DNA of 64,000 bases, from the NCBI GenBank assembly GCA_043803225.1, contig JAZDKF010000012.1:54143-118142 (forward strand), in the 5' to 3' direction. This DNA comes from Candidatus Beckwithbacteria bacterium (GTDB lineage: Bacteria; Patescibacteriota; Microgenomatia; UBA1400; CG1-02-47-37). Every line of letters starts with the position of its first letter. The stretch's first letter is position 1. Under the pieces are notes generated by a model. That model did no database searches. It was not told the DNA's origin and saw only the letters and a list, made by a program, of their open reading frames with translations. The position numbers and the translations under genes are program-made. This document shows, one piece after another, positions 32,184 to 57,973 of this stretch.

Positions 32184-32186
32184 AAT

Positions 32187-33970: not shown

Positions 33971-33990
33971 CCCCTTATTTTAGCATTATT

Positions 33991-40111: not shown

Positions 40112-40647
40112 AAACGATTATCACGAAAACCGGTAAAAAAATTACTTTTGCCTCGCCAAAATCTTCGGATTTAACTGCTATCTATCAATGGGTAAAAACC
40201 ATCGAAAAAGAGGACACTTTTATTTTATTAAATTACCGCGAACCGGTTTTTTTTAAAGAAGAAAAAGAGTTTTTAACCGGTTTATTAAAAAAAATTAAAA
40301 CCAATAAATCTATTTTTATCTCAGTTTTTGATCAGCACAAATATCTTGGTAGTTGTTCAATTGACAAACTCGGTAAACGTCAAGGCCATGTTGGCAGTTT
40401 TGGTATTGCCCTGCTTAAATCTTATCGAGCCGAGGGAATCGGTTATCAACTGGCTCAGTATGCTATCCAACAGGCCAAGGAAAAACTTAAACTAAAACAA
40501 ATTATTCTTGGCTGTTTTGCTAATAATCTTGTTGGTCTTAAGCTTTACCAAAAACTAGGCTTTACTCAGTACGGCATTCACCCCAAGGCCATTTTTTATC
40601 AGGGTAAATATCTTGACGAAATCTTATTTTATAAGAATTTGAAATGA
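40108..40647 (+). CDS. GNAT family N-acetyltransferase
   Basis: 179 aa, 'YRAEGIGYQLAQYAIQQAK' acetyl-CoA motif. Confidence 0.7.
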   Translation: MKTIITKTGKKITFASPKSSDLTAIYQWVKTIEKEDTFILLNYREPVFFKEEKEFLTGLLKKIKTNKSIFISVFDQHKYLGSCSIDKLGKRQGHVGSFGIALLKSYRAEGIGYQLAQYAIQQAKEKLKLKQIILGCFANNLVGLKLYQKLGFTQYGIHPKAIFYQGKYLDEILFYKNLK

Positions 40648-43583
40648 AACTTAACCCAAACCAGCAGTTAGCCGTTGACACGATTGACGGCCCGGTCATG
40701 GTCATTGCCGGTCCGGGGACTGGTAAAACCCAGATTATTGCCGAGCGGATTGCCCAAATCCTGAAAAAAACCGATACTGCCCCGGATTCAATCCTGGCCT
40801 TGTCTTTTACCGAGTCCGGTGTCAAAGCCATGCGCGAGCGGTTGATCGCCACCATTGGCGCTACCGCTTACTATGTCAATATCTTTACCTTTCACTCATT
40901 CTGCTCCTCAGTGATTCAGGAATTTCCTGACAAATTTATTATTTCTCCTCAAGTTGAACCTCTTTCTGACCTGGAGCGGGTGCAAATTTTTCAAACCATT
41001 ATTGATTCTTTAAATCTCGATTATTTAAAACCTGCCCATCAGCCCTATTTTTACATCCCTAGCCTTATCCAGGCCATTCAGGATCTAAAGCGCGAAGCCG
41101 TTTCCCCCGATGATCTTAAAGCTTTAATCACCGACCCTAAAGCCGCCAAACTGCCTGAACTGGTTAAAATCTACCGTCGCTATCAAAAGGCATTAGCCGA
41201 AGTCGGCCGTTATGATTTTGAAGACATGATTAACTTGGTGGCTCAGGCCTTTAAGGCCGATTCCGAACTGTTATTAACTTTTCAGGAGCGCTTCCACTAC
41301 TTTTTAGTTGATGAATACCAGGATACTAACTCGGCGCAAAATCAGGTGGTTAACCTGCTGGCTTCCTATTGGGGTGATCAGGCCAATGTCTTTGTGGTTG
41401 GCGACATCAACCAATCGATCTTTAAATTCCAGGGCGCCTCTTTGGAAAATGTTATCGGTTTTACTAAAACTTATCCTCGGACAAAAATAATTACCTTAGA
41501 TCAAAACTACCGTTCCACCCAAACTATTTTAACTGCCAGCCACCACCTGATCCAAAACAACCACTTTCACATCGAATCAGTGGTTAATACTGCCAAAACC
41601 AAACTTACCAGCCAAAAAACTCATCCGGAAAAACCGCTTTATATAATTAAACTGCCTTCAGAAATTATCGAAACTTATTGGATTGCCCAAAAAATTAAAA
41701 AGTTAATTAACCAAGGGGTCAAGGCGGAATCGATTGCCGTGCTTTACCGTCACAATGCCGATGCTGCTGGCCTGGCTGATATTTTTGCCAAACTGCATAT
41801 CCCCGTGGACATTGAAGGCGGCGCTAATATCTTAGAAGACCCCACCATTATTAAGCTTTTAACTTTATTAAAAGCCATTAGTTTAAGCCCCAGCAGCCTT
41901 GAAGATCTGGATTTATTCACTCTGCTTCATTATGAGTTTTTACATCTCGACTCTCTGGATATTTTAAAACTTAGCCGCCAGGCATCCCAGTCCAACACTT
42001 CCATTATTGATCTGATTCTTTCCACTTCGTTTCCGGCCTTAAAGCTTAAAAGCCAGGAGCGGATTTTAGATTTTATCCGCCGGCTGGCTTCTTGGCAGCA
42101 GCTGGACAGCCAATTAAACTTTTCCCAATTTTTTGAAACCTTAGTGAAACAGTCAGGTTTTTTTGACTGGCTGATCAGCTGCCCGGACGCTTTAGAAAAA
42201 CTTAACCGTTTAAACTCGCTTTTTAGCGCCATTAAGCGTTTAAACCAGGCCGATCATCAGTTAAATCTGCACTCCTTTTTAAATGCCCTTCAGTTAATGG
42301 AACTCAATCACTTAAAGCTGGCTGAAACCGACTTGGATATTAAAACCAAAGCCGTTACCTTAACCACTGCCCACAAAGCCAAAGGCAAAGAATGGGAATA
42401 TGTTTTTATTATCAAAGCCATCGATGGCAAGTGGGGGAATAATCGCACCCGGGAAATGATTAAACTGCCTTCAGGCATTTTAAAATATTCCCAGATTGAT
42501 AAAAAAGAAAAAAACGAAGACGAACGCCGCCTCTTTTATGTCTGTCTTACCCGGGCTAAGAAAAAACTTTATCTTACTTTTGCCGATCGCTATGCCAGGT
42601 TTGGTCATTCTACCGAAGCTGTCCCTACGATGTTTATCTCTGAGTTGCCCCAACCACTGGTAAAAACCCTCCAGCCAAAATCCTTAAATCCCCAAACAAT
42701 CTTAACTTTAAGTTTTTCTGCCCCGTCAGCGCCCCGACCTACCTTAGTTGAAGCCGATTACTTTAACTTTATTCTTAACGGCTTCAAGCTGTCGCCGACT
42801 GCCCTTAACACTTATCTTACCTGCCCCTATAAATTTAAACTCAATAACTTAATCCGGGTGCCCCGCGCCAAGCAAACCTATTTTAGTTTTGGCACTGCCG
42901 TGCACAAAGCCTTAGAACTTTTCCATCGCCAGTTTATTAAAAACGATAAACATCCGGCTAAGCAGTTTTTAATCGATCAATTTGGAAAAGCTTTAGCCAA
43001 AGAAGTTTTAACCGCATCCGAACTAAAGCTGATGTTAAAAAAAGGTCAGAAGCTGTTAAGTTTTTACTATGATTATTACCAGGATAACTTGGTTAAACCC
43101 CTATTTACCGAGAAATTTTTTGGCTACGGTATGTCTAAAACTTATCTGGACGACATTCCTTTAGCCGGAAAGATCGACCGTATCGACCTGCTTTCTGTTT
43201 CTAAGAAAACAGTGAAGGTTGTTGATTATAAAACAGGATCCCCTAAATCGCGGAATCAGATTTTGGGCAAAACCCAGGAAGCCAATGCTGACTATTATCG
43301 CCAGCTGGTTTTTTACCGCCTTTTAAGCCAGCTGGATCGAAGTTTTAAGCTTAAAGTGAGTGAAGCTGAACTGGAGTTTGTTGAACCCACGCCGTCCGGT
43401 AAACTGAAAAAAGAAAACTTTATTATTTCCGACCAGGACGTCGCTGACTTAAAAGAAACTATCCGTCAATCTATGAAAGCCATCCGCTGTTTAAATTTTT
43501 CCAAAACCTCCACCTATAGCCATTGTTTACGCTGCGAATATTTAAACCACTGTTGGCCCGAAGGTCTGCCTCAACCTGGCTAA
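40644..43583 (+). CDS. UvrD/PcrA-type SF1 helicase fused to C-terminal PD-(D/E)xK nuclease with Cas4/AddB-like Cys cluster
   Basis: Helicase motifs 'AGPGTGKT', 'DEYQDTN', 'VGDINQSIFKFQGAS', 'DQNYRST', 'TAHKAKGKEWEYVFI', 'VCLTRAKK'. Nuclease 'IDRIDLL...VVDYKTG', 'YRQLVFY'. Cysteines 'CPYKF' plus 'CLRCEYLNHC'. Confidence 0.8.
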   Translation: MKLNPNQQLAVDTIDGPVMVIAGPGTGKTQIIAERIAQILKKTDTAPDSILALSFTESGVKAMRERLIATIGATAYYVNIFTFHSFCSSVIQEFPDKFIISPQVEPLSDLERVQIFQTIIDSLNLDYLKPAHQPYFYIPSLIQAIQDLKREAVSPDDLKALITDPKAAKLPELVKIYRRYQKALAEVGRYDFEDMINLVAQAFKADSELLLTFQERFHYFLVDEYQDTNSAQNQVVNLLASYWGDQANVFVVGDINQSIFKFQGASLENVIGFTKTYPRTKIITLDQNYRSTQTILTASHHLIQNNHFHIESVVNTAKTKLTSQKTHPEKPLYIIKLPSEIIETYWIAQKIKKLINQGVKAESIAVLYRHNADAAGLADIFAKLHIPVDIEGGANILEDPTIIKLLTLLKAISLSPSSLEDLDLFTLLHYEFLHLDSLDILKLSRQASQSNTSIIDLILSTSFPALKLKSQERILDFIRRLASWQQLDSQLNFSQFFETLVKQSGFFDWLISCPDALEKLNRLNSLFSAIKRLNQADHQLNLHSFLNALQLMELNHLKLAETDLDIKTKAVTLTTAHKAKGKEWEYVFIIKAIDGKWGNNRTREMIKLPSGILKYSQIDKKEKNEDERRLFYVCLTRAKKKLYLTFADRYARFGHSTEAVPTMFISELPQPLVKTLQPKSLNPQTILTLSFSAPSAPRPTLVEADYFNFILNGFKLSPTALNTYLTCPYKFKLNNLIRVPRAKQTYFSFGTAVHKALELFHRQFIKNDKHPAKQFLIDQFGKALAKEVLTASELKLMLKKGQKLLSFYYDYYQDNLVKPLFTEKFFGYGMSKTYLDDIPLAGKIDRIDLLSVSKKTVKVVDYKTGSPKSRNQILGKTQEANADYYRQLVFYRLLSQLDRSFKLKVSEAELEFVEPTPSGKLKKENFIISDQDVADLKETIRQSMKAIRCLNFSKTSTYSHCLRCEYLNHCWPEGLPQPG

Positions 43584-47871: not shown

Positions 47872-48906
47872 ATGCTTTCCGCCGTTAAACGCCGTTTCTA
47901 TAAATATCTTCTGCCTTTTCGCCCGTTAATCTATCTGGCAGTTATCGGTCTGGTCTGCTTAATTTTAGTTTTAATCATTCCTAAACTGGCCGCTTCTTTT
48001 AAAAAAATTATTCAACTTTCTACGATTACCCGGCTTGACTCTTTCCGCAATCGGACCAATATTCTGCTTCTTGGCGCCAGTGGCGGAACTCACCCCGGAG
48101 CTGATTTAACTGACAGCATCATGTTAATTTCAGTTAATCTTTCTACCTCAGATACGGTCTTAATTTCTCTGCCTCGGGACATTTGGGTTGAATCTTTATC
48201 TGCCAAACTTAATACTGCCTATCATTTTGGCGAAACCAAGCAGCCCGGCGGCGGCCTGATTATGGCTAAAGCCGCGGTTGCCGAAATCATCAACCAGCCG
48301 GTCCATTATGCTGCACTCTTGGATTTTTCCGGTTTTGAAACCGCCATCGACGTCCTTGGTGGTTTGGATCTGAATGTGCCCCATGGCTTTATCGACGCCA
48401 AGTATCCGCTTCCTGGCCAGGAAAATGCTCCCGATGAAACCGCCCGCTATGAAATCCTGCAGTTTCATTCTGGCTTTCAACACTTTGACGGTTCCATGGC
48501 CTTAAAATATGTTCGTTCCCGCCAGTCAGAAGGTGAAGAAGGGACTGATTTTGCCCGCAGCCAGCGTCAGCAATTGGTTTTGTTGAGTTTTAAAGATAAA
48601 GTTTTGTCTCTAAAAACTTTGCTTAATCCGTTTAAACTTAAAGCCCTCTATCAAGCTTTTAAAGCCGCTGTTACCACCGATCTTGAACCAAAAATCTATC
48701 CGGATTTAGTTAAGCTGGTTTTTAAAATTAAACCTGATTCGCTTCGTACAGGCATCATTGACCAGGGCAGTGACAACGAAGAAATTCCCGCCTTGCTCTA
48801 CAACCCGCCGGCCGAACAATACGGCCAATGGGTTTTATTGCCGCTTAATAACAACTGGCAGGCTGTTTATGATTACCTTGAAGAAATTATCTACCAAAAT
48901 CAATAG
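47872..48906 (+). CDS. LytR-CpsA-Psr (LCP) family cell-wall glycopolymer transferase
   Basis: N-terminal TM. 'ILLLGASGG...DSIMLISVN...ISLPRDIWV' LCP core. Confidence 0.8.
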   Translation: MLSAVKRRFYKYLLPFRPLIYLAVIGLVCLILVLIIPKLAASFKKIIQLSTITRLDSFRNRTNILLLGASGGTHPGADLTDSIMLISVNLSTSDTVLISLPRDIWVESLSAKLNTAYHFGETKQPGGGLIMAKAAVAEIINQPVHYAALLDFSGFETAIDVLGGLDLNVPHGFIDAKYPLPGQENAPDETARYEILQFHSGFQHFDGSMALKYVRSRQSEGEEGTDFARSQRQQLVLLSFKDKVLSLKTLLNPFKLKALYQAFKAAVTTDLEPKIYPDLVKLVFKIKPDSLRTGIIDQGSDNEEIPALLYNPPAEQYGQWVLLPLNNNWQAVYDYLEEIIYQNQ

Positions 48907-50122
48907 GCCAATACTAGTTCTAACCACTGTATTAGTTATATCGATTCTCTACTGGCAAGCACTTAATCCCTTATGGCGCGGCCATTTAGAAATTGATGTT
49001 TGGAGTTGGTTTCTGCGAATGGAATATTTTTTTAAACACAACTCTTTTACAGGTCTAGACGGCAATGAAATTCTTCCCACGACGCTTATTTATATTTTTA
49101 TCCCTCGCTTGTTAGCTGGCTGGAAAAATCTTTCTTATATTTCTTATCTTTCAGCTGCGACGTTAGTTAATTTATTGGTAATTTTTCTCACCCTCGTTGT
49201 AGTGAAAAAGAAATCATCTTCACTTCAATCTTGGCTATTTTTAATCTTAGTCTTAGCCATTGGCCCAATCCTTCTTTTTCGCTTTGACACAATCGTCGCC
49301 CTCTTCGTCCTTTTAAGCCTATATTTGTTTTCAAAAAAAAGAATAATCTCATCTGCTATTTTCTTAAGTTTGGCCACCTCCATGAAAATATATCCGATTA
49401 TTTTATTACCCTACCTGGGATTAATTCTTATGTATCAAAAAAGTTTTAAACGCATTTTAATTTACTTATTTTATTTTCTCCTATTTATGGCCTTGCCGAT
49501 AATAATATTTTTCCTTCTCGGTGGAAATCTTAAGCAAATTTTATCTGCTATGGAATTTCACGGTCTTAAATATGTTAGTATCGAAAGTCTGCCGGGAAGT
49601 TTATTAACCGCCTCTTCGCTGATTTTTAACCATCGCCCTCCAGATTTATTAGGGGGTTATGGAATTTGGGGAATTACTACGCCGCTGATTAAAACTCTTG
49701 GTCTAAAAGTTTTTAATTATTTTTGGGTTTTACCAGTTAGTTTTTTTTATCTCTTTATCATCAAAAACAGAAAATATCTAGCTAAACTTTATCCTTCAGT
49801 TTGTTTCTCATTGGTTTTATTCTTTCTAGTCTTTTCTAAAAATCTACACCCTCAATACATTTGGTGGTTTCTATCCATTTTTCCCTTTATTAAAATTACT
49901 GCCTTCAACCGCTATAAATATTTATTTATGTTTATTTTGTTGGTATTTATCAGTATTTTCAACCAATTAGTTTATCCGTTGTTTTACACTCAGTTTATAG
50001 ACGATTTTTTCCAGCATAATCGTTACTATGAAGTTTTTTACGCCCTTTTAATTAGAAACTTTTTAATTGTTTGTCTATTAATAGTTAGTTTGAAAAATGA
50101 ATTTCCTAAAAAAACACTTTAA
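48869..50122 (+). CDS. polytopic membrane protein, GT-C-like (DUF2029/GT87-like) glycosyltransferase, putative
   Basis: At least 10 TM helices, low-GC. Start uncertain (the track ORF begins at 48758 inside the LCP gene; 48869 ATG chosen). Confidence 0.45.
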   Translation: MITLKKLSTKINRPILVLTTVLVISILYWQALNPLWRGHLEIDVWSWFLRMEYFFKHNSFTGLDGNEILPTTLIYIFIPRLLAGWKNLSYISYLSAATLVNLLVIFLTLVVVKKKSSSLQSWLFLILVLAIGPILLFRFDTIVALFVLLSLYLFSKKRIISSAIFLSLATSMKIYPIILLPYLGLILMYQKSFKRILIYLFYFLLFMALPIIIFFLLGGNLKQILSAMEFHGLKYVSIESLPGSLLTASSLIFNHRPPDLLGGYGIWGITTPLIKTLGLKVFNYFWVLPVSFFYLFIIKNRKYLAKLYPSVCFSLVLFFLVFSKNLHPQYIWWFLSIFPFIKITAFNRYKYLFMFILLVFISIFNQLVYPLFYTQFIDDFFQHNRYYEVFYALLIRNFLIVCLLIVSLKNEFPKKTL

Positions 50123-51332
50123 TTTAAAAACACTAATTCTTTTAGTGTTTATTTTACGATCAGCGCTTTCTTTGTTGCCGCCAATGGCCATCGATCAAAG
50201 TTGTTGGCGTGCCTGGAGCCAAAGACTGGTTGACTTAGGCCCCGCCGAATTTTATTCAGAAACTGTGTTTACCGCTAACCCTCCTGGCTTTCTTTATGTT
50301 TTTTGGCTGCTGGGAGAAATTAAAAATAGTTTATTCCCTCAAATATCTTTTTCTTCTTCCGGCTATGACTGGTTCCTTAAACTGCCCAATAATCTGGCCG
50401 ATATTGCTGCCGGGGTGCTTATTTACCTGTTAATTAAGACAAAAAGGGGAATCGGCATAGCCAAACTTGGGTTTCTTCTTTACACCCTAAATCCAATAAC
50501 TTGGTTTAACTCATCAGTTTATGGCCAATTTGATGGCTCAGCTGCATTTTTTGGTTTACTCGCAGTGTACTTATTATTAACTAAGCGAAAACTATCCTTG
50601 TCTGCTGCTGTTTTCGCCCTCGCCTGGGCCATAAAACCGCAATTGATTGCTTTGGCTCCGGCTTTGGGATTATTAGCTATCTTTCGCTTTAAGCCAATTG
50701 ATTGGTTTAAAGCCGCCTTAGCCTTTATATCAACCACCTTAATAATCTACTGGCCGTTTTTCCCCGGAAATCCTGTTAAGGGGATAATCTCTGTTTTTCA
50801 GCAAATGGCCAACCTTTACTCTTGCGCTTCCTGTTTTACTTTTAATTTCTGGGGTCTTTGGGGCAATTGGTTCCCCGATACCACTGTATTGCTTGGTCTA
50901 TCGTTTATGTCTTGGGGGATTATTCTTGTCGGCTTGAATCTGATTGTTGTCTTGTTGCTTAAACCGCTTAAACTTCGCTATCGTTTACCCTATCTTTACC
51001 TTACTATTGCGATCTCAATTTTATCCTTTAATATGTTGGTTACCCGAATGCACGAGCGTTATGTTTTTCCCTTTTTTGCCTTTTTCCTTTTAGCTGCCAT
51101 TCTCATGAAATCAAGACTGTTATTTGTTTTTTATCTGATTTTTTCTATTTTTAATACCTTTAATGTTTACTATCCTTACTCTTATTACAATCCGGATTTT
51201 CACTTAACCCCGGCTTTAATTAACTGGCTTAATCAAAACTTTCAGTTGCTGTCCGTAATTGGCTTAGCTATTTATTTGATATTATTAACTCACTTTTTAA
51301 TTACTTTAAAAAGATTAAGAAAAAAATCATGA
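50097..51332 (+). CDS. polytopic membrane protein, GT-C-like glycosyltransferase, putative
   Basis: 411 aa, at least 10 TM helices. Same operon, overlapping starts and stops. Confidence 0.45.
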   Translation: MNFLKKHFNLKTLILLVFILRSALSLLPPMAIDQSCWRAWSQRLVDLGPAEFYSETVFTANPPGFLYVFWLLGEIKNSLFPQISFSSSGYDWFLKLPNNLADIAAGVLIYLLIKTKRGIGIAKLGFLLYTLNPITWFNSSVYGQFDGSAAFFGLLAVYLLLTKRKLSLSAAVFALAWAIKPQLIALAPALGLLAIFRFKPIDWFKAALAFISTTLIIYWPFFPGNPVKGIISVFQQMANLYSCASCFTFNFWGLWGNWFPDTTVLLGLSFMSWGIILVGLNLIVVLLLKPLKLRYRLPYLYLTIAISILSFNMLVTRMHERYVFPFFAFFLLAAILMKSRLLFVFYLIFSIFNTFNVYYPYSYYNPDFHLTPALINWLNQNFQLLSVIGLAIYLILLTHFLITLKRLRKKS

Positions 51333-52501
51333 AACAAAATCACCTTAAACTGCTGTTTCTTCTCTTTATTATTTCTATTTTCTTCCGCACTTTTCGTCTT
51401 TCACAGCCAAAGGCCTATGTTTTTGACGAGGTTTATCATACTTTTACCGCCCAGGAAATGGCCAAAGGGAACCAGCATGCCTGGGAATGGTGGGTTCCTT
51501 CACCGCCTGGGGTAGCTTATGAATGGACTCATCCGCCTTTAGCTAAACTGGCCATGGCCGGATCAATCAGCTTATTGGGTGATCGTAGTTTTGCCTGGCG
51601 TTTTCCCAGTGCGGTTTTCGGCACCTTATCAGTTGCCGTAGTTTATTTTATTGGTAAACAATTATTTAAAAACAATCATCTCGCTCTTTTAGCCGCCGCG
51701 ATTTTTAGTTTTGACGGCCTGCAATTAACTATGTCTCGAGTCGGCATGGCCGACAGCCTTTTAACCCTATTAATGCTTCTGGCCTGTTTATTTTTTTATC
51801 AGTCAAAATTCCGCTTAACCGGAATTTTTCTGGGATTAGCTTTAGCCACCAAATGGTCAGCTGTTTTGCTGTATCCGGTCTTTGGTATCTTATTATTGCC
51901 TAAAATAATTAAAAATACCCAGAAAGTTAAGTTTTTCTTCCAGCTGGCTTATAGCTTTTTGCTTACGCCTTTAGTAATTTATTTTTTAACCTTTATTCCT
52001 TTTTTTAATACCGGACATACTTTAGCTCAGTGGTGGGAACTGCAAAGACAAATGTATTATTATCACTCCCACTTAAACGCCACTCATCAGTACCAATCAA
52101 TGGCTTGGCAGTGGCCGCTTCTTGTCCGGCCGGTTTGGTTTTATGTGGATTATGCGAAAAATTCAATTGCTAATATTTATAATCTCGGCAACCCGGCAAT
52201 TTTCTGGGGCGGGTTAGTCGCTTTATTTTTTAGCCGCAATTTTACTTTATTAATCTCTTACTTTCTCCTTTTTTTCCCTTTTGTCTTTTCTCCCCGGATT
52301 ATGTTTTTACACCACTATCTGCCTGCTTTGCCGTTTTTGTGTCTGATTATTGCCCAGGCAATTTATCAGCATAAATTACTGGCAAAGTATTACCTCCTAT
52401 TAGTTATCCTGTTATTTTTATTCTTCTATCCCCTTAATACTGCCATTTCTTTACCGGTGAATTTAGTTAAATATTGGTTTTGGCTGCCAACTTGGAAGTA
52501 A
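51329..52501 (+). CDS. protein O-mannosyltransferase-like GT39 (PMT family)
   Basis: First-loop 'YVFDEVYHTFTAQE' (DE motif of PMT/GT39). Polytopic. Confidence 0.7.
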   Translation: MKQNHLKLLFLLFIISIFFRTFRLSQPKAYVFDEVYHTFTAQEMAKGNQHAWEWWVPSPPGVAYEWTHPPLAKLAMAGSISLLGDRSFAWRFPSAVFGTLSVAVVYFIGKQLFKNNHLALLAAAIFSFDGLQLTMSRVGMADSLLTLLMLLACLFFYQSKFRLTGIFLGLALATKWSAVLLYPVFGILLLPKIIKNTQKVKFFFQLAYSFLLTPLVIYFLTFIPFFNTGHTLAQWWELQRQMYYYHSHLNATHQYQSMAWQWPLLVRPVWFYVDYAKNSIANIYNLGNPAIFWGGLVALFFSRNFTLLISYFLLFFPFVFSPRIMFLHHYLPALPFLCLIIAQAIYQHKLLAKYYLLLVILLFLFFYPLNTAISLPVNLVKYWFWLPTWK

Positions 52502-52506
52502 GTAAA

Positions 52507-53211
52507 ATGAAACAATTTAAACAATTATCAATATTTTTTCCTGCGTTCAACGAAGAGTTTGTGATTCAGAAAACAATCGCTGCTGCAATCAAGGTCGCCC
52601 GGGAAGTTGCCGAAACTTATGAGATTATCGTGATTAACGACGGTTCAACTGACAGAACCGGGGAGATGATTGAAGCCATGATCAGCCGCAATCCTAGCAT
52701 TAGACTTATCTCTCACCCTATTAATCAGGGTTATGGCGCGGCGATAAAATCTGGCCTTGCGGCCGTCCGTTATCCGTGGGTAATTGCCTGTGATTCTGAC
52801 GGCCAGTTTGATTTAACCGAAATAAAAAAATTTACTCCCTATATGAACAACCACGATTTAATTATTGGTTATCGTTTAAAAAGGAGCGACAGCCGCTATC
52901 GTCGCTTCATGGCATTTATTCTGAAACTGGTTAACTTAATCTTGTTTAAAATAAATTTTAAAGATATTGATTGCGGCTTTAAGTTGTTTAAAAAAGAAGT
53001 GATTGCCGCGGTGGGCCCCCTAGCTACTAATAGTGCCATTACTGTTACCGAATTTATTGCTAAATCCCTTCATCAGGGTTTTAAGATTAAAGAAATTGGC
53101 GTCCACCATCATAGCCGTTCTGGTGGTCAACAAACCGGAGGTAAGCCTTCAGTGGTTATTAAAGGCGCCAAAGAAGCGATTAGGCTTTGGTTAAAACAAC
53201 AGCGCCCCTAA
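52507..53211 (+). CDS. polyprenol-phosphate mannose/glucose synthase (Dpm1-like GT2)
   Basis: 'LSIFFPAFNEE...IIVINDGSTDRTGE...IACDSDGQFD' GT2 DXD architecture of Dpm1/GtrB type. Confidence 0.8.
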   Translation: MKQFKQLSIFFPAFNEEFVIQKTIAAAIKVAREVAETYEIIVINDGSTDRTGEMIEAMISRNPSIRLISHPINQGYGAAIKSGLAAVRYPWVIACDSDGQFDLTEIKKFTPYMNNHDLIIGYRLKRSDSRYRRFMAFILKLVNLILFKINFKDIDCGFKLFKKEVIAAVGPLATNSAITVTEFIAKSLHQGFKIKEIGVHHHSRSGGQQTGGKPSVVIKGAKEAIRLWLKQQRP

Positions 53212-53883
53212 GATTAACAGCAGTCCGATTGAAACTCCTAAAACTACGCCGGTAGTGCTGCCTGCCTGGGGCAGTTCCGGCTGGCCGCCTTTAGTCTGCG
53301 CCACTAAAGTTGGCGAAGGCATTGTTCCGCCTTTAGCTATTGATGAAGGCGAGGGGGATAATAAGCCTGTGGGACAACTGCAGTCTGTTTCTTCGCTGCA
53401 GTTGGGATTAACACAGCGCTTATCGCTTCCTACGGTCAGACATCTTAAATTATCGCTGCATTCACTGTCATTCTCGCATTCATCAAAACAGCCGATTAGT
53501 TGAGGCGAAGCCGATGGTGATGGGGAAGGCGAAAGGCTCGGACTTGGTGAAGGCGACCCAGACGGGCTGGGACTCGGACTTGGGGAAGGTGACGGTGAAG
53601 GCGACCCCGATGGGCTCGGCGAAAGGCTCGGACTTGGTGAAGGTGAACCCCCCACTGTAAAACTTAACTCGCAAACTCCTTCGGTTTTGACTTCTTCAAC
53701 CGGCACGGTTTGAGGCTTAGTTGTTGGTTTAGGCGTTGGTGCCGGTGTTGGTTTTTTTAACTGGAAGAACAGGACTATGGCCGTAATCAGCAGAATTGCG
53801 GTAAATCCCAGCAAGCCCCACAACAGCCACTTTTTGTCTTTTTTGGTATTAGCAATAGTAGTATTAGTGTTTATCTGTTCCAT
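53191..53883 (-). CDS. membrane-anchored Cys-module protein with (SP)n repeat tract and C-terminal LPQAG-hydrophobic tail
   Basis: N-terminal TM. 'SPSPSPSLSPSPSGSPSPSPSPSPSPSPSGSPSPSPSLSPSPSPSASP'. Cys module 'CVNPNCSEETDCSCP'. C-terminus 'LPQAGSTTGVVLGVSIGLLLILGALLF'. Confidence 0.6.
   Translation of the reverse strand: MEQINTNTTIANTKKDKKWLLWGLLGFTAILLITAIVLFFQLKKPTPAPTPKPTTKPQTVPVEEVKTEGVCELSFTVGGSPSPSPSLSPSPSGSPSPSPSPSPSPSPSGSPSPSPSLSPSPSPSASPQLIGCFDECENDSECSDNLRCLTVGSDKRCVNPNCSEETDCSCPTGLLSPSPSSIAKGGTMPSPTLVAQTKGGQPELPQAGSTTGVVLGVSIGLLLILGALLF
53490..53650. repeat. short imperfect tandem repeats (GGNGAAGGNGA-type hexamer/12-mer units) encoding the (SP)n tract
   Basis: Visible periodicity 'ggcgaaggcga..ggtgaaggcgac..ggggaaggtgacggtgaaggcgacc'. 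Confidence 0.5.
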
Positions 53884-55085
53884 CTTAAATCCCCTGGCAC
53901 CCCAGGCTGTTGAGATATATTAGCTTTGCCCCACTCAGTGCAGTAAGTTTTAGAGCTGCTCCAGCAGACCCGGCACTGGACTGTCCAAATACCGCTTTGA
54001 TTAATAACCATTTGCTTGCTGGCTTTATTATTCATAGTTGCATAAGACATATTGATTGGGTAAGCAGTTGGATCTTCGATATACTCGGCTGTTCCGACTT
54101 TATGCCTAAAATATGCTACCGGCCCCGGCACTATGGAAAAATTCATTCCCTCACAGGTAAATGTGACCGTGTCATTTAACTGCGGTGCCGCCACGTCTTT
54201 GGTTAAACTCACACAGGTTAAGGGAGGGGAGTACGGCGGCTCTGACGGGCTTGGCGACGGGCTTGTTCCTGCTGATGGGCTCGGGCTACTAGCCGAGCCG
54301 CAATTACAATCAGGGTCTTGAGGGCATTGAGGGTTAACGCAGACATTATTTATACATGACGATCCTTGGCAAGTCCACTGATATATACCATCTATATTTA
54401 CCATACATGATTCGCCACACAAGCGAGGAGGTATTGTCGATGCTGATGCTGACGGCGACGGCGACGATGATGCTGACGGCGATGGCGATGCTGACGGCTC
54501 CGGTTCTGATGATTGCAACGGCGTCCCTGAACAATCATCAGTCAGGTTTACTGGTTCATCAGTGTTTGGCATCTGACAGTAAACACCATTATTATCAAGC
54601 GGATCAATCTGCCCGCACTCATTGGTTCCCAATGACAAACTTCCGCAGTTAGCTGTTGGACCATAATAGGCATTGTCGTCTTTTTCATCACAAAAGCCGT
54701 CTTCGTGAGTATCACCAGTAGGACAATAAATAATTACACAGTTGCCACTAAAGGAGGCGCCAGCGGTATTTATACAGTTAGTCCCCACTTGCGCACTAAT
54801 CGCTGCTTTTTTCTCTACCCTTGTTTGTTCCCCAATTGACTTCACTCCCAGCATCACTCCGCCCACAATTAACGCTAACATCAGCAACCCGCCAACCAAT
54901 TTTAAACCCTTCTTTTTAACAGTTTTTCCAAATTGGTGTGTCGGTTTGGTTATAATTGGTTCTTCTTTAGGCACTGGGGGGATTGGGGTTAATGGCGGAA
55001 TCGGGGACACTGGTGGAGTTGGCGGCACAGGCGGTGGTGGTGTTGGTGGGATTGGGGGCGGGGGCTGCAGGCCAAAGTTATCCAT
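53871..55085 (-). CDS. membrane-anchored poly-Pro / Cys-module / Ser-Pro repeat protein (paralog of the downstream gene)
   Basis: N-terminal 'PPPPIPPTPPPPVPPTPPVSPIPP', TM, then about 30 Cys including 'CVNPQCPQDPDCNCG', interleaved with 'SASPSPSASSSPSPSAS' and 'SPSPSAGTSPSPSPS'. Confidence 0.6.
   Translation of the reverse strand: MDNFGLQPPPPIPPTPPPPVPPTPPVSPIPPLTPIPPVPKEEPIITKPTHQFGKTVKKKGLKLVGGLLMLALIVGGVMLGVKSIGEQTRVEKKAAISAQVGTNCINTAGASFSGNCVIIYCPTGDTHEDGFCDEKDDNAYYGPTANCGSLSLGTNECGQIDPLDNNGVYCQMPNTDEPVNLTDDCSGTPLQSSEPEPSASPSPSASSSPSPSASASTIPPRLCGESCMVNIDGIYQWTCQGSSCINNVCVNPQCPQDPDCNCGSASSPSPSAGTSPSPSPSEPPYSPPLTCVSLTKDVAAPQLNDTVTFTCEGMNFSIVPGPVAYFRHKVGTAEYIEDPTAYPINMSYATMNNKASKQMVINQSGIWTVQCRVCWSSSKTYCTEWGKANISQQPGVPGDLRWNR
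54438..54500. repeat. short tandem repeats (GCTGAYGGCGAY units) encoding SASPSPS tract
   Basis: 'gatgctgatgctgacggcgacggcgacgatgatgctgacggcgatggcgatgctgacggc'. Confidence 0.5.
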
Positions 55086-55103: not shown

Positions 55104-56429
55104 TTATACACTTTTTTTTAATTTCCAGCCACCGATTAATAAACCAATGCCGGTTAAAATCATCAGCAAGGTCACTTCAAACGTTCCCGGACTAGGCACG
55201 CCGGCATCAGTTGCCGGCATTGACGTTCTTTCTCCTGACGGTGTCGCTGTAATTGCCGGAACGGTTGTTTCTCCGGCTTGGGCAATCACAAAATTTCGAG
55301 ATAAAGTTTGTTCTTCCCCCTGGCTGTCAATATAGCTGATGGTGACTGAATGTTCTCCCGGCTCCAGTCCTGACGGCGGCGTAAACTCCCAGTTGCCGTC
55401 TTCATCGATTGTCGCTGAACCGGTAAAAGTTTCGGGCGAATTAATCTCGATTGCCAAAACTATTCCGCTTGGACCGGTTCCCATAAAGGCCGGTTGGGTG
55501 GCATTAATCACTTCGCCTTCAAACGACGGATTATCTAAAGTCACCTCGCCGCTTTCAGTAGCCACTTCGGAAATCAGCGGATTTAAAGCTTCAAACCCGC
55601 TCTTTTCCGCCACTTGTCCGCCCGGGCTGGCGGTCAGCGATTCGGTTGTCTCCGTTGGGTTAGGCAAACTGGCCACTCTAAAGTCAGCTGACTTGCCCAA
55701 AGTAATATCTGGCACCGGACTGTCATTGGCAGTCGTGGTAATTGCCGAAGCCGTTCCTTGCTGTCCGCCCTGGACTAATAAATTTACAATTGTTGCTTGG
55801 GTGTCATAGGTTAGATAACCGCCCAAATCTATAGTTCTGGCCGTCGCCAGCGATAAGGCCCAGCTGCCTTGGTTTTTTACTAAAGCCGATAAAGGCGCGC
55901 CATTGGCCACGTTAATATAGACCACCACTGCTTCTGCCGGGGTGCCGGCTTGGGACAAGATTGTGCCGTAAATCGGATCTGCCGCCGGCGGATTGCCTAA
56001 GGTAGCTCCGGTGGTTATTTCAAACGGCTTGCCTTTATTATCATACTGTTTATTATTTGACTCGATCTTAAAATAATACTTGGTTTGCGGAGTTAAATTT
56101 TTAGCTGTGACATGGTGGACTTCTGTGCTGACTGCTCCGCCCGACAATTGATCCCGGTCATCTAAAACCGTTTGTTTTAAATCTGTCGGCTGCATGCCCA
56201 GTTTAATTGAGCCGGTGCTGGTTTTCCCGGTAATCCAGGAAACCGAAAAACCCGTGTCGCTGACATTAGTAATTCTGACTTGTTCCGGCGTGCTGGCAGT
56301 TTCGGTTTTCGGTTGTACTCCGCTTCTGGTTTTAAACCAAAAAATTCCCGCCCCGATAAATAGAAATAACAGCAATAAGCCTAATGCCGTGGGGAAGTGA
56401 ATTTTATTGACTTTATTTTTTTGCATCAT
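55104..56429 (-). CDS. cell-surface protein with FN3-like and Ig-like domains, N-terminal signal anchor and C-terminal TM plus basic tail
   Basis: 'VRITNVSDTGFSVSWITGK...YYFKIESNN' FN3 pattern. C-terminus 'TLLMILTGIGLLIGGWKLKKSV'. Confidence 0.55.
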   Translation of the reverse strand: MMQKNKVNKIHFPTALGLLLLFLFIGAGIFWFKTRSGVQPKTETASTPEQVRITNVSDTGFSVSWITGKTSTGSIKLGMQPTDLKQTVLDDRDQLSGGAVSTEVHHVTAKNLTPQTKYYFKIESNNKQYDNKGKPFEITTGATLGNPPAADPIYGTILSQAGTPAEAVVVYINVANGAPLSALVKNQGSWALSLATARTIDLGGYLTYDTQATIVNLLVQGGQQGTASAITTTANDSPVPDITLGKSADFRVASLPNPTETTESLTASPGGQVAEKSGFEALNPLISEVATESGEVTLDNPSFEGEVINATQPAFMGTGPSGIVLAIEINSPETFTGSATIDEDGNWEFTPPSGLEPGEHSVTISYIDSQGEEQTLSRNFVIAQAGETTVPAITATPSGERTSMPATDAGVPSPGTFEVTLLMILTGIGLLIGGWKLKKSV

Positions 56430-56433
56430 AACT

Positions 56434-56772
56434 TTATTCCTGTTGTCCGCTTGGGCTAGCTTCAGCGCTTTGGCTTGCCTCGCCCTGCGGGCTGCTGACC
56501 GGCGGCACCAGTAAAACTGCCGGCTGGGCCGGTTTCAGACTGTCCCAATCAGCGCTGGGAACTGCTTCCCTCCGGCTGATCATTTTCATTGTGTCAAGAT
56601 CTAGGGTTGACGTCAAGGGTGTTAGTAGTTTTTTTACCTCCGGCCTAATTTGGCTCTTGGTAAAAGCTTTATAAGTAACCATTCCTAGCCAGACTATGGT
56701 AGTTATGATTGTTAACACCGCCAGTTTGAAAAAATCTTTTTTAAACCTTTGTTCGAAGCGTTCACTGATCAT
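56434..56772 (-). CDS. small membrane protein in pilN/pilO operon (PilP-like position)
   Basis: 112 aa, one TM, Pro/Ser-rich tail. Confidence 0.4.
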   Translation of the reverse strand: MISERFEQRFKKDFFKLAVLTIITTIVWLGMVTYKAFTKSQIRPEVKKLLTPLTSTLDLDTMKMISRREAVPSADWDSLKPAQPAVLLVPPVSSPQGEASQSAEASPSGQQE

Positions 56773-57407
56773 TATTGCCCTCCTGTTAGGGGTAAATAAA
56801 ACCCGGCCAGCTTTAAATTAACGGTAAGTTTGTTGGAAATCTTCGAATTTTTATTGCTCAAACTTAAATCAACAATCGTCAGCAGCCGGTCAATTGCCGC
56901 AATTTTGGTGACAAAGTTTTTTACCTGCTGGTAATTGCCGCTTATAGTTAAGTTTACTGTCAACTCCACCGGCTTGCCTGGCTCTGCTCTTTGGTTTAAT
57001 AAATTAAATTCACCCAAACTGCCTGAGGTAATTTCTACTCCAGCCTGTTGAGCCACCCAGTAAATCTGCCAGACTAATCTTTCAAACCTTTCTGATTCTG
57101 GCAACACTTCTTTAATTTCCGGTAAATTGTTAACAATGGCAGCAAAGTTAGTTTCCGCCGCCTTCAAGCTGACAATCTTTTGGGTCAGCTTGCTGTCAAC
57201 CGTTTCCTGATCGCTGATTTCCCTGTTAAGCGTCGCAATGGTTCTAGAGGTAGGTAGAATCGCTACCATCAGAAAAAAAGCAATCGTAAAAACAGTTAAA
57301 CTGGCCAGGCCGGATACTCTTACATCTGGTTTCTGGGTCCAAAGTTTAAAACGCTTGTAGTATCGGTCATAGTTTCTGGCGATGGTTAATCTTTGATTTA
57401 AGCTCAT
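56772..57407 (-). CDS. pilO: type IV pilus assembly protein PilO-like
   Basis: 211 aa. Cytoplasmic N-terminus, TM 'LASLTVFTIAFFLMVAIL', coiled coil, C-terminal alpha/beta domain. Overlaps pilN by 4 nt. Confidence 0.55.
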   Translation of the reverse strand: MSLNQRLTIARNYDRYYKRFKLWTQKPDVRVSGLASLTVFTIAFFLMVAILPTSRTIATLNREISDQETVDSKLTQKIVSLKAAETNFAAIVNNLPEIKEVLPESERFERLVWQIYWVAQQAGVEITSGSLGEFNLLNQRAEPGKPVELTVNLTISGNYQQVKNFVTKIAAIDRLLTIVDLSLSNKNSKISNKLTVNLKLAGFYLPLTGGQ

Positions 57408-57973
57408 TTGTTTTTATACTCTAAGGTCATTTTAAAAATAATTCCGCTGATGTTGCTCTTGCTTGAATCAACACTTTCTAGAGAAACTCCGCTGAACTTT
57501 TGGCTTTCTTGGGCTTTACTTAGCAAGGTCGCCAAGCCTGTTTCTGACAGCACCACGCCCTGCAATCCCACCTCTTCATTATTAATCGTAATCGAGTCAT
57601 AAATCGCGTCCATAGGAGTAATCAAGCTTAATTCATCTAAAACTTCGGTTACCTTAAGACTTTCTGTTTCAGCGGTTTTAACCACCTCCAGCTGTTGTTG
57701 AACCTGTCTGAATTTCGCTTCAAAATCACCAAAGCTTACTACCACCGCCACTTTTTGTTTAATTTTTTCGTTTAAATCAGTCAGTTTTCGGTCTAGGGAA
57801 AACCTGAACAGAAAAGCCAAAATCACCGCCAACTCTACAAACACCACTACATATTTGCCGACTGTCAGCACCCACTTGACTAACTTACCCAGCAAGCCTA
57901 CTTCCCACGGATCTTTTGGTAATAAATTAATTTCTTTACGCTCTTTTTTCCGGGCAGGCATACTTAAGTTCAA
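57404..57973 (-). CDS. pilN: type IV pilus assembly protein PilN
   Basis: N-terminal 'EINLLPKD' (the PilN INLLP PilM-binding motif), TM, coiled coil. Confidence 0.7.
   Translation of the reverse strand: MNLSMPARKKERKEINLLPKDPWEVGLLGKLVKWVLTVGKYVVVFVELAVILAFLFRFSLDRKLTDLNEKIKQKVAVVVSFGDFEAKFRQVQQQLEVVKTAETESLKVTEVLDELSLITPMDAIYDSITINNEEVGLQGVVLSETGLATLLSKAQESQKFSGVSLESVDSSKSNISGIIFKMTLEYKNK

Follow-up and report, generated by a model that had tools for sequence, protein, structure and literature searches.

The analysed window, a stretch of 64,000 nt from Candidatus Beckwithbacteria (Microgenomates, CPR), contains five close-set ORFs on the plus strand at positions 47872–53211 (Table 1). These ORFs and their coordinates are present as described in a first-pass annotation of the same DNA, and also its family assignments (an LCP protein, two GT-C proteins, a PMT/GT39 and a Dpm1-like GT2) all hold according to Pfam, NCBIfam, profile and fold searches. 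The gene spacing fits an operon, as ORF2 and ORF3 overlap by 26 nt, ORF3 and ORF4 share an ATGA and ORF4 is separated from ORF5 by a gap of 5 nt. The mechanical ORF2 begins with a TTG at 48758, with the ATG at 48869 being the likelier start, and the true start of ORF5 is the ATG at 52507, resulting in a protein of 234 aa. The convergent overlap at 53191–53211 is real: read from the sequence, the 3' ends of the GT2 gene and of its minus-strand neighbour share 21 nt. Cell-wall genes encoding FemAB and MurJ flank the locus. For comparison we used loci from 80 Microgenomates species, and the arrangement of ORF3 and GT39 was counted over the 76 loci in which it could be assessed.

Table 1: Genes of the locus and of the convergent operon (positions in the window).
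Feature	Position	Strand	Evidence
LCP phosphotransferase	47872..48906	+	PF03816, TIGR00350
GT87/PIG-M-like GT-C (ORF2, GTC2)	48869..50122 (mechanical ORF from 48758)	+	GT87, family profile
ALG6/PIG-M/PimE-like GT-C (ORF3, GTC3)	50097..51332	+	family profile, AF2/Foldseek
GT39 PMT homologue (ORF4)	51329..52501	+	PMT, PMT_4TMC, PMT_2, fold
GT2, polyprenol-phosphate sugar synthase type (ORF5)	52507..53211	+	PF00535
Candidate acceptor 1, 230 aa	53191..53883	-	S/P/T tracts, LPQAG tail
Candidate acceptor 2, 404 aa	53871..55085	-	S/P/A tracts, 21 Cys
Ig-like/fn3 surface protein (Big_13)	55104..56429	-	Big_13, Pur_ac_phosph_N, fn3
Bitopic membrane protein, 112 aa, conserved	56434..56772	-	no family
PilO (56772-57407) and PilN (57404-57973)	56772..57973	-	PF04350, PF05137; head of convergent operon

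GT39, its GT-C partner and the other enzymes

From sequence and model, ORF4 is robustly predicted to be a GT39 protein O-mannosyltransferase homologue. This compact protein of 390 aa matches PMT (8.1e-18), PMT_4TMC (3e-20) and PMT_2 (2.1e-14), all passing the cut-offs, lacks a MIR domain and shows a DE motif at residues 33–34 inside the sequence FDEVYH (residues 32–37, nt 51422–51439). Its residues D33, E34 and R91 align with D77, E78 and R138 of yeast Pmt1 and are invariant across the relatives. When the GT39 family profile was compared with the PDB, Pmt1, Pmt2 and Pmt4 were the sole matches (6e-29 to 1e-11), and the AF2 model (pLDDT 86.9) reached a TMq of 0.77–0.84 to PMTs vs 0.57 to ArnT. 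The first-pass annotation had named ArnT as the family that could overturn its PMT assignment; both profile and fold favour PMTs over ArnT, and the assignment withstood this check. As ORF4 scores 62 bits on the equivalog model of the actinobacterial Pmt, for which the cut-off is 800, it is not assignable as an ortholog of a characterised bacterial Pmt.

ORF3 is listed as hypothetical in the public annotation and by itself gave no Pfam match and passed no Pfam or CAZy-type family threshold. Its family profile matched GPI mannosyltransferase I (GPI-MT-I, 4.8e-11) and ALG6 (4.8e-6), and ALG6 was also the top Foldseek match (TMq 0.75) of its AF2 model (pLDDT 93.2). These and its further structural relatives ALG3 and PimE use Dol-P or polyprenol-P hexoses. 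Among the assessable loci, 47 encode ORF3 and GT39 as a single fusion protein of about 800 aa and 18 have the two genes adjacent (65/76 together), and fusions account for 46/150 of the best cluster representatives. Two such fusions share just 35% identity. Both modules retain their invariant residues across 88 fusion proteins, with D33, K180 and H319-E320-R321 of ORF3 being kept in 83–87 of them. ORF3 is the true obligate partner of GT39, overlooked in the first-pass annotation, and the conserved core of the cassette consists of this ALG6-like GT-C and GT39.

ORF2 just missed the Pfam cut-off for GT87 (24.3 bits vs 25; 3e-5) and matched ALG3 with 8e-4, and its family profile led to GPI mannosyltransferase I (2.8e-5). 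A relative in another locus (L002) carries GT87 on record, and the first-loop residues H39 and D43 are invariant. Homologues of ORF2 came up as best matches in 10/80 species loci, mostly in close relatives.

Judged by its sequence relatives, ORF5 is a GT2 of the DPM1/Ppm1/GtrB/ArnC-like polyprenol-phosphate sugar synthase type. It matches PF00535 (3.4e-27), no TM helices are predicted, and its nearest solved relatives, headed by ArnC (7.5e-13), GtrB (2.5e-10) and the DPM synthase from Pyrococcus (3.6e-7), are all polyprenyl-phosphate glycosyltransferases. In NCBIfam the top matches were PgfS (best), PpgS, ArnC and a haloarchaeal Dol-P-hexose transferase, all far under their cut-offs. A GT2 homologue is found at most 10 kb from GT39 in just 5 of the 80 loci, a count that weighs against the module proposed below, and the two genes stand side by side in four arrangements (window, L004 and L005; L037; L055; L066). 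With GT2 so rarely nearby and the GT87-like GT-C mainly in close relatives, the five genes do not form the conserved unit that had been suggested.

The LCP protein is named ‘LCP family protein’ by NCBI, matches PF03816 (1.1e-27) and TIGR00350 (82.2 bits vs a cut-off of 62.3) and combines a catalytic domain on the extracytoplasmic side with a TM anchor at its N-terminus, the top solved relatives being MsrR, TagV, TagT, BrpA and Cps2A.

The convergent surface-protein genes

Both candidate acceptor genes are conserved in relatives and thus are real genes and not chance ORFs. Their S/P/T tracts, already noticed in the first pass, reach 19/20 in acceptor 1 and 17/20 in acceptor 2, and among the 61 genes of the window just these two reach at least 15/20. 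The tracts are predicted to lie outside the membrane; that they could be mere wall-spanning spacers was counted against glycosylation by the cassette. Acceptor 1, for which a Pfam search gave no significant family, is composed of an N-terminal TM, a P/T linker, an (SP)n tract, an 8-Cys module, a second S/P tract, LPQAG and a hydrophobic C-terminal tail, which scores 15.5 bits on TIGR01167 (cut-off 15.9). Counterparts were assigned by position and motif: in 45 of the 49 loci holding both GT39 and Big_13 genes, a gene located between them and convergent to GT39 encodes a Cys-module protein that is rich in S/T/P and has a C-terminal LPx[AS]G tail. The richest tracts of these proteins average 31% T, 26% S and 27% P, and the basic residues that classical sorting signals have are missing from the tails. 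An S/P/T-rich gene is located immediately downstream of GT39 in 34/71 loci vs a background of 73/1191 genes.

Acceptor 2 (SP404) shows a Pro-rich N-terminus, a TM, a Cys-rich ectodomain and S/P/A tracts, belongs to no family in Pfam or NCBIfam and was found by phmmer in 7 ORFs only. Most related loci have a Cys-rich second gene at its position, usually with a conserved C-terminal domain. The Ig-like/fn3 protein encoded next to it (Big_13 1.4e-11, Pur_ac_phosph_N 5.1e-11, fn3 7.1e-7) shares an operon with both candidate acceptors and ends in MPATD, a TM and a basic tail; its gene is convergent in 45 of 59 loci, and the tail of the orthologue from L001 reaches 16.1 bits on TIGR01167, for which the cut-off is 15.9. 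For the 112-aa protein phmmer found 33 ORFs across the loci, all adjoining the PilO gene. PilO (4.3e-14) and PilN (3.7e-8, with EINLLP at its N-terminus) are syntenic in about 50 loci.

A possible protein O-glycosylation module

On balance we favour, with some reserve, a reading of the locus as an extracytoplasmic protein O-glycosylation module that follows the logic of actinobacterial and eukaryotic O-mannosylation, with the convergent S/T/P proteins as the likeliest dedicated clients. The gene families, fold, conserved catalytic residues, fusion and neighbourhood are as observed above, whereas the sugar, the acceptors, the sequence of steps and the part played by the LCP protein are inferred. 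The TM-less GT2 would put a hexose, most likely mannose, on polyprenol phosphate at the cytoplasmic face and, after flipping of the lipid-linked sugar, GT39 would move it as the first sugar to Ser/Thr of exported proteins, at unfolded linkers rich in S/T/P. ORF3 would then attach another sugar, again taken from a lipid donor of this kind, and ORF2 may lengthen the glycan further in Beckwithbacteria. The clients would be the S/T/P-rich surface proteins with disulfide modules and LPx[AS]G tails, and judging from the sequences it is plausible that those next to the cassette are glycosylated by it. The LCP protein most likely joins a polyprenyl-PP-linked wall glycopolymer to peptidoglycan and might, with lower probability, transfer a polymer onto the S/T/P-rich proteins. 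The first-pass interpretation as a whole is partly supported.

A doubtful but possible alternative is a housekeeping O-mannosylation, in which GT39 (with ORF3) modifies many exported proteins, its neighbours represent frozen CPR gene order and the S/P tracts may be unglycosylated linkers. The block from FemAB to LepA is syntenic as a whole, with the unrelated genes UvrD, S20/rpsT, lepA and hrcA equally so, which confounds the linkage between GT39 and the S/P proteins. To our knowledge, pmt in Actinobacteria is not clustered with its substrates. Moreover, the adjacency is broken both ways in some lineages: both LCP and Big13 are missing from 19 loci, in 16 of which no ORF up to 10 kb away is S/P/T-rich or carries an LPx[AS]G tail, with L020 alone having such an ORF adjoining GT39, two further loci likewise show a broken adjacency, and in L086 the S/P-protein cluster is present without GT39 adjoining it. 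The co-occurrence that the first pass had proposed to check is visible in the 45 of 49 loci but is weakened by these loci and by the synteny of unrelated genes. Against a mere housekeeping role, the convergent partner is kept down to about 39% PMT identity, with the 3' ends just 2–20 nt apart in many loci, and the tracts keep their composition (S+T 57%, P 27%) but not their sequence, as would be expected of glycosylated mucin-like linkers, although this is no proof.

We regard it as unlikely that the locus encodes a wall-glycopolymer or glycolipid pathway, in which the three GT-C proteins including the GT39-like one would build or decorate an outer-face polyprenol-linked or wall-bound glycan, the LCP protein would ligate the product to peptidoglycan and the S/P proteins would be bystanders. 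The mycobacterial enzymes for LM/LAM and arabinogalactan work in such an outer-face, polyprenol-P-sugar mode. In favour of this pathway are the same-strand LCP gene directly upstream of GT39 in 41/65 related loci, the flanking FemAB and MurJ genes and the closest relatives of ORF3 and ORF2 (ALG6, GPI-MT-I, ALG3, PimE), which all glycosylate lipid-linked glycans. A separate cluster in the window (30220–35478), encoding a DPPR-synthase-like UbiA, a WecA-like transferase, a GT-C-like membrane protein and a membrane GT2, also points to it and suggests an ordinary glycopolymer substrate of the LCP protein unrelated to the S/P proteins. However, the GT39 signature is specific (PMT and PMT_4TMC, DE motif, equivalent of Pmt1 R138, PMT fold), the GTC3-GT39 pair is kept without LCP in Daviesbacteria-type loci, and every characterised GT39 we know of is a protein Ser/Thr mannosyltransferase.

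It is highly improbable that ORF3 is a non-catalytic structural mate of GT39 and no second glycosyltransferase, similar to the obligatory Pmt1-Pmt2 or Pmt4-Pmt4 dimers: the frequent fusion or adjacency, the end-to-end homology of ORF3 and GT39 (hhalign, 98% probability) and the dimeric solved eukaryotic PMTs (6p25, 9i5k) would agree with it, but the first-loop Asp and the K...HER set are retained in nearly all fusions as for active GT-C, and the top folds of ORF3 are ALG6 and GPI-MT-I and not PMTs.

Comparison with known systems

The proposed O-glycosylation module resembles actinobacterial Ppm1 and Pmt (M. tuberculosis Rv1002c, C. glutamicum Cg_1014, S. coelicolor Pmt) in its GT2 lipid-sugar synthase and MIR-less GT39 with DE motif, as well as in the exported acceptors with S/T(P)-rich linkers (candidates here) and the monoderm-type envelope (PMC11727336, PMC5882110). 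Actinobacterial GT39s heavily mannosylate S/T-rich linkers and have many unlinked targets (PMC11727336). The window GT39 differs in its phylum, its length of about 390 aa and its distance to the Pmt equivalog model, and by the pairing or fusion with an ALG6-like GT-C, the LCP usually upstream and the convergent candidate substrate genes, the last three of which we did not find described in the literature on actinobacterial O-mannosylation (PMC11727336, PMC5882110). With eukaryotic PMT1, PMT2 and PMT4 (PDB 6p25, 9e61, 9i5k) it shares the TM core fold, the DE motif, the R138 equivalent and the PMT_4TMC region, but it has no luminal MIR domain and about half the length, and its donor would be bacterial polyprenol phosphate instead of dolichol phosphate.

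Streptococcal Pgf (PgfS, PgfM1, PgfE, PgfM2) and GtrB-PgtC2 also combine an Und-P-sugar GT2 with one or two GT-C and glycosylate extracytoplasmic S/T-rich disordered regions, including those of the LPXTG adhesins Cnm and WapA (PMC12041528, PMC5856776). They differ from the window in using GT-C of the YfhO/PgfM family and not GT39, in transferring Glc or GalNAc and in operons without LCP, and a two-module GT-C fusion is not described for them. A tie between an LCP and a sortase-type surface protein is known from Actinomyces oris, where LcpA mediates glycosylation of the wall-anchored GspA (PMC6381275); no GT39 is implicated there, whereas in the window the link between LCP and the proteins is gene proximity only and the tails are without the classical basic sorting residues.

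ORF3 and ORF2 share the fold, the first-loop acidic residue and probably polyprenol-P-hexose donors with ALG6 (GT57), PIG-M (GT50), ALG3 (GT58) and mycobacterial PimE (GT87). That the known relatives of ORF3 work on lipid-linked glycans and not on glycoproteins was counted against the module. The acceptors of these four enzymes are lipid-linked oligosaccharides or glycolipids, whereas ORF3 is fused to the PMT in most relatives.

The GT39 enzyme and its ALG6-like partner

The five plus strand ORFs that the first-pass annotation had described as a protein O-mannosylation-like cassette are all present where it had placed them, and their packing is operon-like, with ORF2 and ORF3 overlapping by 26 nt, ORF3 and ORF4 sharing an ATGA, and the ATG of ORF5 at 52507 lying 5 nt past the ORF4 stop. 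Its convergent overlap at 53191–53211 was also found, as ORF5 runs 21 nt into the 3' end of the gene for a 230-aa S/P-rich protein before its stop (53209–53211). Promoter and terminator scans gave the same counts as in shuffled sequence and were uninformative. At NCBI the protein with 100% identity to ORF4 belongs to a Candidatus Beckwithbacteria MAG and bears the name 'phospholipid carrier-dependent glycosyltransferase'; its neighbours are recorded as 'LCP family protein', 'glycosyltransferase family 2 protein' and 'Ig-like domain-containing protein', with ORF3 as 'hypothetical protein'.

ORF4 is a GT39 and, by sequence and fold, a predicted protein O-mannosyltransferase. The N-terminal PMT domain PF02366 reached 65.3 bits (cut-off 22.7, residues 11–227), the PMT-specific C-terminal four-TM region PF16192 (PMT_4TMC) 73 bits (cut-off 32.4) and PMT_2 likewise exceeded its cut-off; PF16192 was also recorded for every listed ORF4 homologue. 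Pairwise alignment equates D33-E34 of ORF4, an Asp-Glu motif placed in the first extracytoplasmic loop, with D77-E78 of yeast Pmt1, and R91 with R138; all three residues are invariant in 23 homologues and kept in 87–88 of 88 fused relatives. Using a 23-sequence family profile as query against 177,635 PDB sequences, only Pmt1, Pmt2 and Pmt4 from yeast and Chaetomium were found at E ≤ 1 (6e-29 to 1e-11). The AF2 model (pLDDT 86.9, pTM 0.90) showed PMTs as its seven best Foldseek matches (TM score, TMq, 0.77–0.84), followed by ArnT and PglB (0.56). An ArnT-type lipid A transferase, which the first-pass annotation had named as the alternative to a PMT, can be dismissed because the profile has no ArnT match and the fold similarity is 0.57 compared with 0.84. 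The Pfam scan found no MIR domain in ORF4 (390 aa); since this domain, placed in the large luminal loop of eukaryotic PMTs, is also missing from bacterial GT39s, the membership of ORF4 in GT39 is unaffected. ORF4 is no equivalog of the actinobacterial Pmt, for which NF058602 gave 62.2 bits against a cut-off of 800 and covered the N-terminal 140 residues only.

The true partner of the GT39 is the ALG6-like ORF3 (GTC3). Window ORF3 itself matches no Pfam model, and among 19 of its relatives PMT_2 was found in 7, GT87 in 6 and Alg6_Alg8 in 3. Its family profile matched GPI-MT-I (4.8e-11) and ALG6 (4.8e-6), and Foldseek with the AF2 model (pLDDT 93.2) returned ALG6 (TMq 0.75), GPI-MT-I (0.60) and PimE (0.59), with ALG3 also listed. 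D33, the conserved acidic residue of the first outer loop, is invariant. From these profile and model data we are confident in predicting a GT-C fold for ORF3. ORF2 appears GT87/PIG-M-like: PF09594 (GT87) scored 24.3 bits with a gathering cut-off of 25, GT87 was recorded for its relatives and its family profile matched GPI-MT-I at 2.8e-5. The three GT-C families represented by ORF2, ORF3 and ORF4 are mutually homologous yet distinct.

To follow the pairing we scanned one genome per GTDB species, which gave at least 570 encoded relatives, and analyzed the best 80 loci with 21 kb examined for each. The ORF3-type module is fused N-terminally to GT39 in 47 of them, forming an ORF of about 800 aa. 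It lies next to GT39 as a separate gene in 18 loci, is missing from 11 and could not be assessed in 4. The fused architecture was also present in 46 of the 150 best representatives from a library of 1.84 billion proteins. Two such fusions share only 35% identity, and the invariant residues of both modules are kept in 88 fusions. The window and the related locus L005 carry the split form, and L004, which is 83% identical, the fused one. A sequencing frameshift of a fused gene is an unlikely origin of the split, which looks genuine because the junction differs from that of L004 over many bases, the ATGA is clean and L005 is split too; a small chance of an assembly error is left. No description of a two-module GT-C protein of the ORF3-GT39 type was found in the searchable literature.

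Coordinates of the features discussed; window positions unless a related locus from another genome (L number) is named
Feature	Position	Strand	Remark
ORF1, predicted LCP enzyme	47872–48906	+	
ORF2, GT87/PIG-M-like GT-C	48869–50122	+	mechanical ORF from 48758
ORF3 (GTC3), ALG6-like GT-C	50097–51332	+	
ORF4, GT39/PMT	51329–52501	+	
ORF5, predicted GT2	52507–53211	+	
Split GTC3-GT39	50097–52501	+	
Fused GTC3-GT39	L004:7340–9733; L087:13656–16136; L073:7788–10268		examples
GTC3-GT39 converging on ABC transporter	L084:11200–14041; L085:11212–14103		Daviesbacteria-type
230-aa S/P protein	53191–53883	−	
LPx[AS]G-x-x-(W)-P-T tail	53191–53280; L017:6625–7170; L019:11138–11737		L017 and L019, orthologues
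8-Cys module	53430–53560; L087:12782–13654; L086:12085–13152	− (window)	window copy within 230-aa gene
404-aa Cys-rich protein	53871–55085	−	
Big_13/Ig-like protein	55104–56429	−	
p112, 112-aa membrane protein	56434–56772	−	
PilO	56772–57407	−	
PilN	57404–57973	−	
'...GGFYLSPA' protein	L016:11128–11394; L025:11201–11488; L028:2047–2367; L039:11200–11487; L046:11187–11474		
Second glycan cluster	30220–35478	−	five genes in the rows below
UbiA-family decaprenyl-phosphate phosphoribosyltransferase-like gene	in 30220–35478	−	NF008977, 224 bits, cut-off 234
WecA/MraY-family transferase	in 30220–35478	−	
128-aa membrane protein	in 30220–35478	−	
466-aa polytopic protein	in 30220–35478	−	matches no family; N-terminal 'YWYGDEGIY', GT-C-like
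495-aa membrane GT2	in 30220–35478	−	
1031-aa PF01370-DUF4012 protein	8447–11542	+	
UvrD/PDDEXK helicase	40644–43583; L001:1–1984		intein (PF14890) in L001 only

Predicted donor synthase, LCP enzyme and second glycan cluster

By family, ORF5 is a predicted polyprenol-phosphate sugar synthase, and the Dpm1-like assignment made earlier agrees with its closest solved relatives, which are lipid-phosphate glycosyltransferases (ArnC 7.5e-13, GtrB 2.5e-10, Pyrococcus DPMS 3.6e-7). PF00535 (GT2) reached 95.9 bits against a cut-off of 23.3, and the translation contains the DXD motif as 'DSD' within 'VIACDSDGQFD'. The best NCBIfam matches were PgfS, PpgS, ArnC and Dol-P-hexose transferase, all below cut-off, and none of the 21 NCBIfam matches passed its curated equivalog threshold (best PgfS, 71 bits compared with 500). 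With 234 aa ORF5 ends soon after the catalytic domain and has none of the C-terminal TM helices that GtrB, ArnC and archaeal DPMS possess; in its sequence it resembles the TM-less DPM1/Ppm1 catalytic type. The proposed LCP assignment of ORF1 holds on family grounds, as both PF03816 (97.5 bits, cut-off 24.6, 1.1e-27) and TIGR00350 (82.2 bits, cut-off 62.3) exceed their cut-offs. Solved relatives of this predicted LCP enzyme are MsrR, TagT, TagV and Cps2A, and its translation starts with a hydrophobic segment as membrane anchor.

A second glycan cluster is present on the minus strand of the window. Its gene content suggests an arabinan/ribose-type lipid-linked wall polymer pathway as a possible substrate source for LCP, and the cluster could provide an ordinary polyprenyl-PP-linked wall polymer for the ORF1 enzyme. 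Elsewhere in the window an N-terminal NAD-dependent sugar epimerase/dehydratase domain (PF01370) is fused to DUF4012 in a 1031-aa protein.

Convergent S/P-rich proteins and their putative sorting signals

Only two of the 61 window genes reach at least 15 S/P/T per 20-residue window, and these are the convergent genes which the first-pass annotation had singled out for their long S/P tracts. The 230-aa protein begins with an N-terminal TM and a P/T linker; its single 8-Cys module lies between an (SP)n tract and a second S/P tract, and LPQAG with a hydrophobic end forms the C-terminus. The 404-aa protein is Pro-rich at its N-terminus and has a TM and a Cys-rich ectodomain that carries S/P/A tracts. 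Both genes share an operon with the Ig-like/fn3 protein, the 112-aa membrane protein, PilO and PilN. A tandem-repeat search of the S/P genes gave weak short-period arrays at 54445–54498 only; the (SP)n tract in the 230-aa gene had none, and slippage-prone perfect repeats are thus unsupported. The 8-Cys module, with the approximate consensus C-x-[DE]-x-C-x4-[DE]-C-x3-L-x-C-x6-9-C-V-N-x2-C-x2-E-x-D-C-x-C-P, occurs in one to four copies between S/T/P linkers, with recurring Cys counts of 9, 17 and 25 (1+8n). We could assign neither this module nor the second Cys-rich protein to a known family, as there was no Pfam or NCBIfam match and WAP and EB were sub-threshold only. Identity of the convergent operon with the CPR 'Pam' pilus operon was unsupported in a comparison by description; the defining features of the Pam operon are donor-strand pilins, chaperones and an ATP-synthase neighbourhood, with PilN/PilO and glycosylation unmentioned (bioRxiv 10.64898/2026.03.03.709456).

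In 45 of the 49 loci with GT39 and Big_13 the intervening minus strand ORF ends with LPx[AS]G-x-x-x-P-T and about 20 hydrophobic residues. Among 48 tails the L is kept in 46 and the P and G in all 48, position 4 holds A, S or V but in no case T, and K or R is missing from the last six residues of every one (0/48). TIGR01167 (LPXTG_anchor) scored 15.1–15.5 bits on these tails, with a cut-off of 15.9. The richest tracts of the tail-bearing ORFs have a mean composition of 31% T, 26% S and 27% P. The Ig-like protein of the operon ends differently, with [LM]P[AS]T[DEG] ahead of a TM and a tail rich in Lys, and one operon thus appears to encode two sorting-signal types. No sortase was found among the scanned window ORFs; the sortase family is reported to be near-ubiquitous in Microgenomates (PMC6744442). 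Several loci, two of them titled Woesebacteria, carry a small membrane protein of about 90–105 aa ending with '...GGFYLSPA' between the GT39 and LPx[AS]G genes.

Conservation in Microgenomates and a proposed glycosylation pathway

All of the best 80 loci among the at least 570 relatives are Microgenomates-like (Woese-, Beckwith-, Davies-, Ames-, Curtiss- and Chisholmbacteria). When the window proteins were mapped onto the ORFs of these loci, about 50 of them showed a common block, which runs from FemAB, UvrD, LCP and (GT-C) to GT39 and continues with the convergent S/P protein, the Cys-rich protein, Big_13, p112, PilO and PilN, then MurJ and LepA. A same-strand LCP gene lies upstream of GT39 in 41 of 65 loci, and 45 of 59 have a convergent Big_13 operon. 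Within 10 kb of GT39 a GT2 homologue was found in only 5 of 80 loci, in four different arrangements. As unrelated genes are equally within the synteny, the loci are not independent evidence for linkage.

Nineteen loci of the Daviesbacteria/Curtissbacteria type lack both LCP and Big_13; most of them still have GTC3 together with GT39, and some have only GT39. In 16 of them no S/P/T-rich or LPx[AS]G-tail ORF was found within 10 kb; in the exceptions it lies directly downstream (L020) or several kb away (L065, L079). In another locus (L086) the operon from PilN to an LPKAG protein with T/P linkers is kept and GT39 is not beside it. Neither an LCP nor an obvious S/P gene was seen in L084 and L085, where the GTC3-GT39 pair converges not on S/P proteins but on an ABC transporter (two ABC2_membrane_6 genes and an ATPase, with an embedded Trp-repressor-like gene). 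This transporter could be an alternative functional partner, for example an exporter or flippase. As dedicated clients of the GT39, the LPx[AS]G proteins encoded beside it are the most probable candidates.

For their glycosylation we propose that ORF5 would synthesize a polyprenol-P-hexose. Mannose is the best guess for the hexose, because every characterized GT39 uses it to our knowledge, as do GPI-MT-I, PimE and ALG3. On the outer side of the membrane the GT39 module would then attach the first sugar to Ser/Thr in S/T/P linkers that are unfolded, and the ALG6-like module would add the second, and in Beckwithbacteria the GT87-like ORF2 may extend the chain further. We know of no firmly identified enzyme extending bacterial O-mannose chains outside the membrane, and GTC3, a second lipid-sugar-dependent GT-C almost always paired or fused with GT39, is a concrete candidate for this elongating step.

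All elements could be joined to a dedicated Microgenomates surface-glycoprotein maturation line of a kind not known from any cultured bacterium, although we consider it unlikely that they hold together. In such a line the two-module GT-C (ALG6-like and GT39, fused in most species) may equip the S/T/P linkers of the conserved disulfide-module protein family with a di- or oligo-hexose, and the co-transcribed LCP may then load these glycoproteins with a polyprenyl-PP-linked wall polymer or couple them to the wall, similar to Actinomyces LcpA acting on GspA. The atypical LPx[AS]G..PT tail without basic residues may direct anchoring, and the whole set including the PilN/PilO-associated Ig-like protein may be deployed as a host-contact structure. 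The genes and their arrangement seen in the first-pass annotation were confirmed and its glycoprotein-maturation reading is supported in part.

Among bacteria, protein O-mannosylation by GT39 has been characterized in Actinobacteria only, where S/T-rich linkers receive tens of hexoses from these enzymes (PMC11727336). In streptococci, disordered regions rich in S/T and LPXTG adhesins are glycosylated by systems of GT2 and GT-C enzymes (PMC12041528, PMC5856776), and in Actinomyces oris a sortase substrate is glycosylated by way of an LCP enzyme (PMC6381275). No paper connecting Microgenomates or Woesebacteria with GT39 or mannosyltransferases was found in the searchable literature. GT39 chemistry is already known and public records name the genes as GT39, GT2 and LCP; new are the lineage, a large uncultured group, the compactness of the GT39 it carries, the nearly obligate presence of an ALG6-like GT-C paired with or fused to this enzyme, and a conserved neighbourhood in which the GTC3-GT39 pair adjoins specific candidate clients and an LCP enzyme. 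With the core chemistry known and the genes annotated, the advance lies in a variant and in a hypothesis that can be tested, and no new principle is involved. As CPR bacteria spend their life attached to other cells, their surface glycoproteins probably matter for host contact. With 3–5 genes and one client the system is small and within reach of the existing C. glutamicum pmt-deletion platform.

By gene content and synteny many loci (L004, L005, L008, L010, L013–L015 and many more) plainly belong to Microgenomates, but in INSDC they are titled, for example, 'uncultured Pseudomonadales bacterium', 'uncultured Gammaproteobacteria bacterium', 'Alphaproteobacteria' (L030) or 'Dehalococcoidia' (L055), and look like mislabelled MAG records. 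The UvrD/PDDEXK helicase orthologue on a Beckwithbacteria contig (L001) contains an intein that the window copy lacks. The plus strand GC skew is negative in nearly every 2-kb bin of the window (1–64000, about −0.1 to −0.3), independent of gene orientation and with unchanged sign around dnaA/dnaN (3174–5905); an unusual strand composition disparity has reportedly been seen in one Microgenomates genome.
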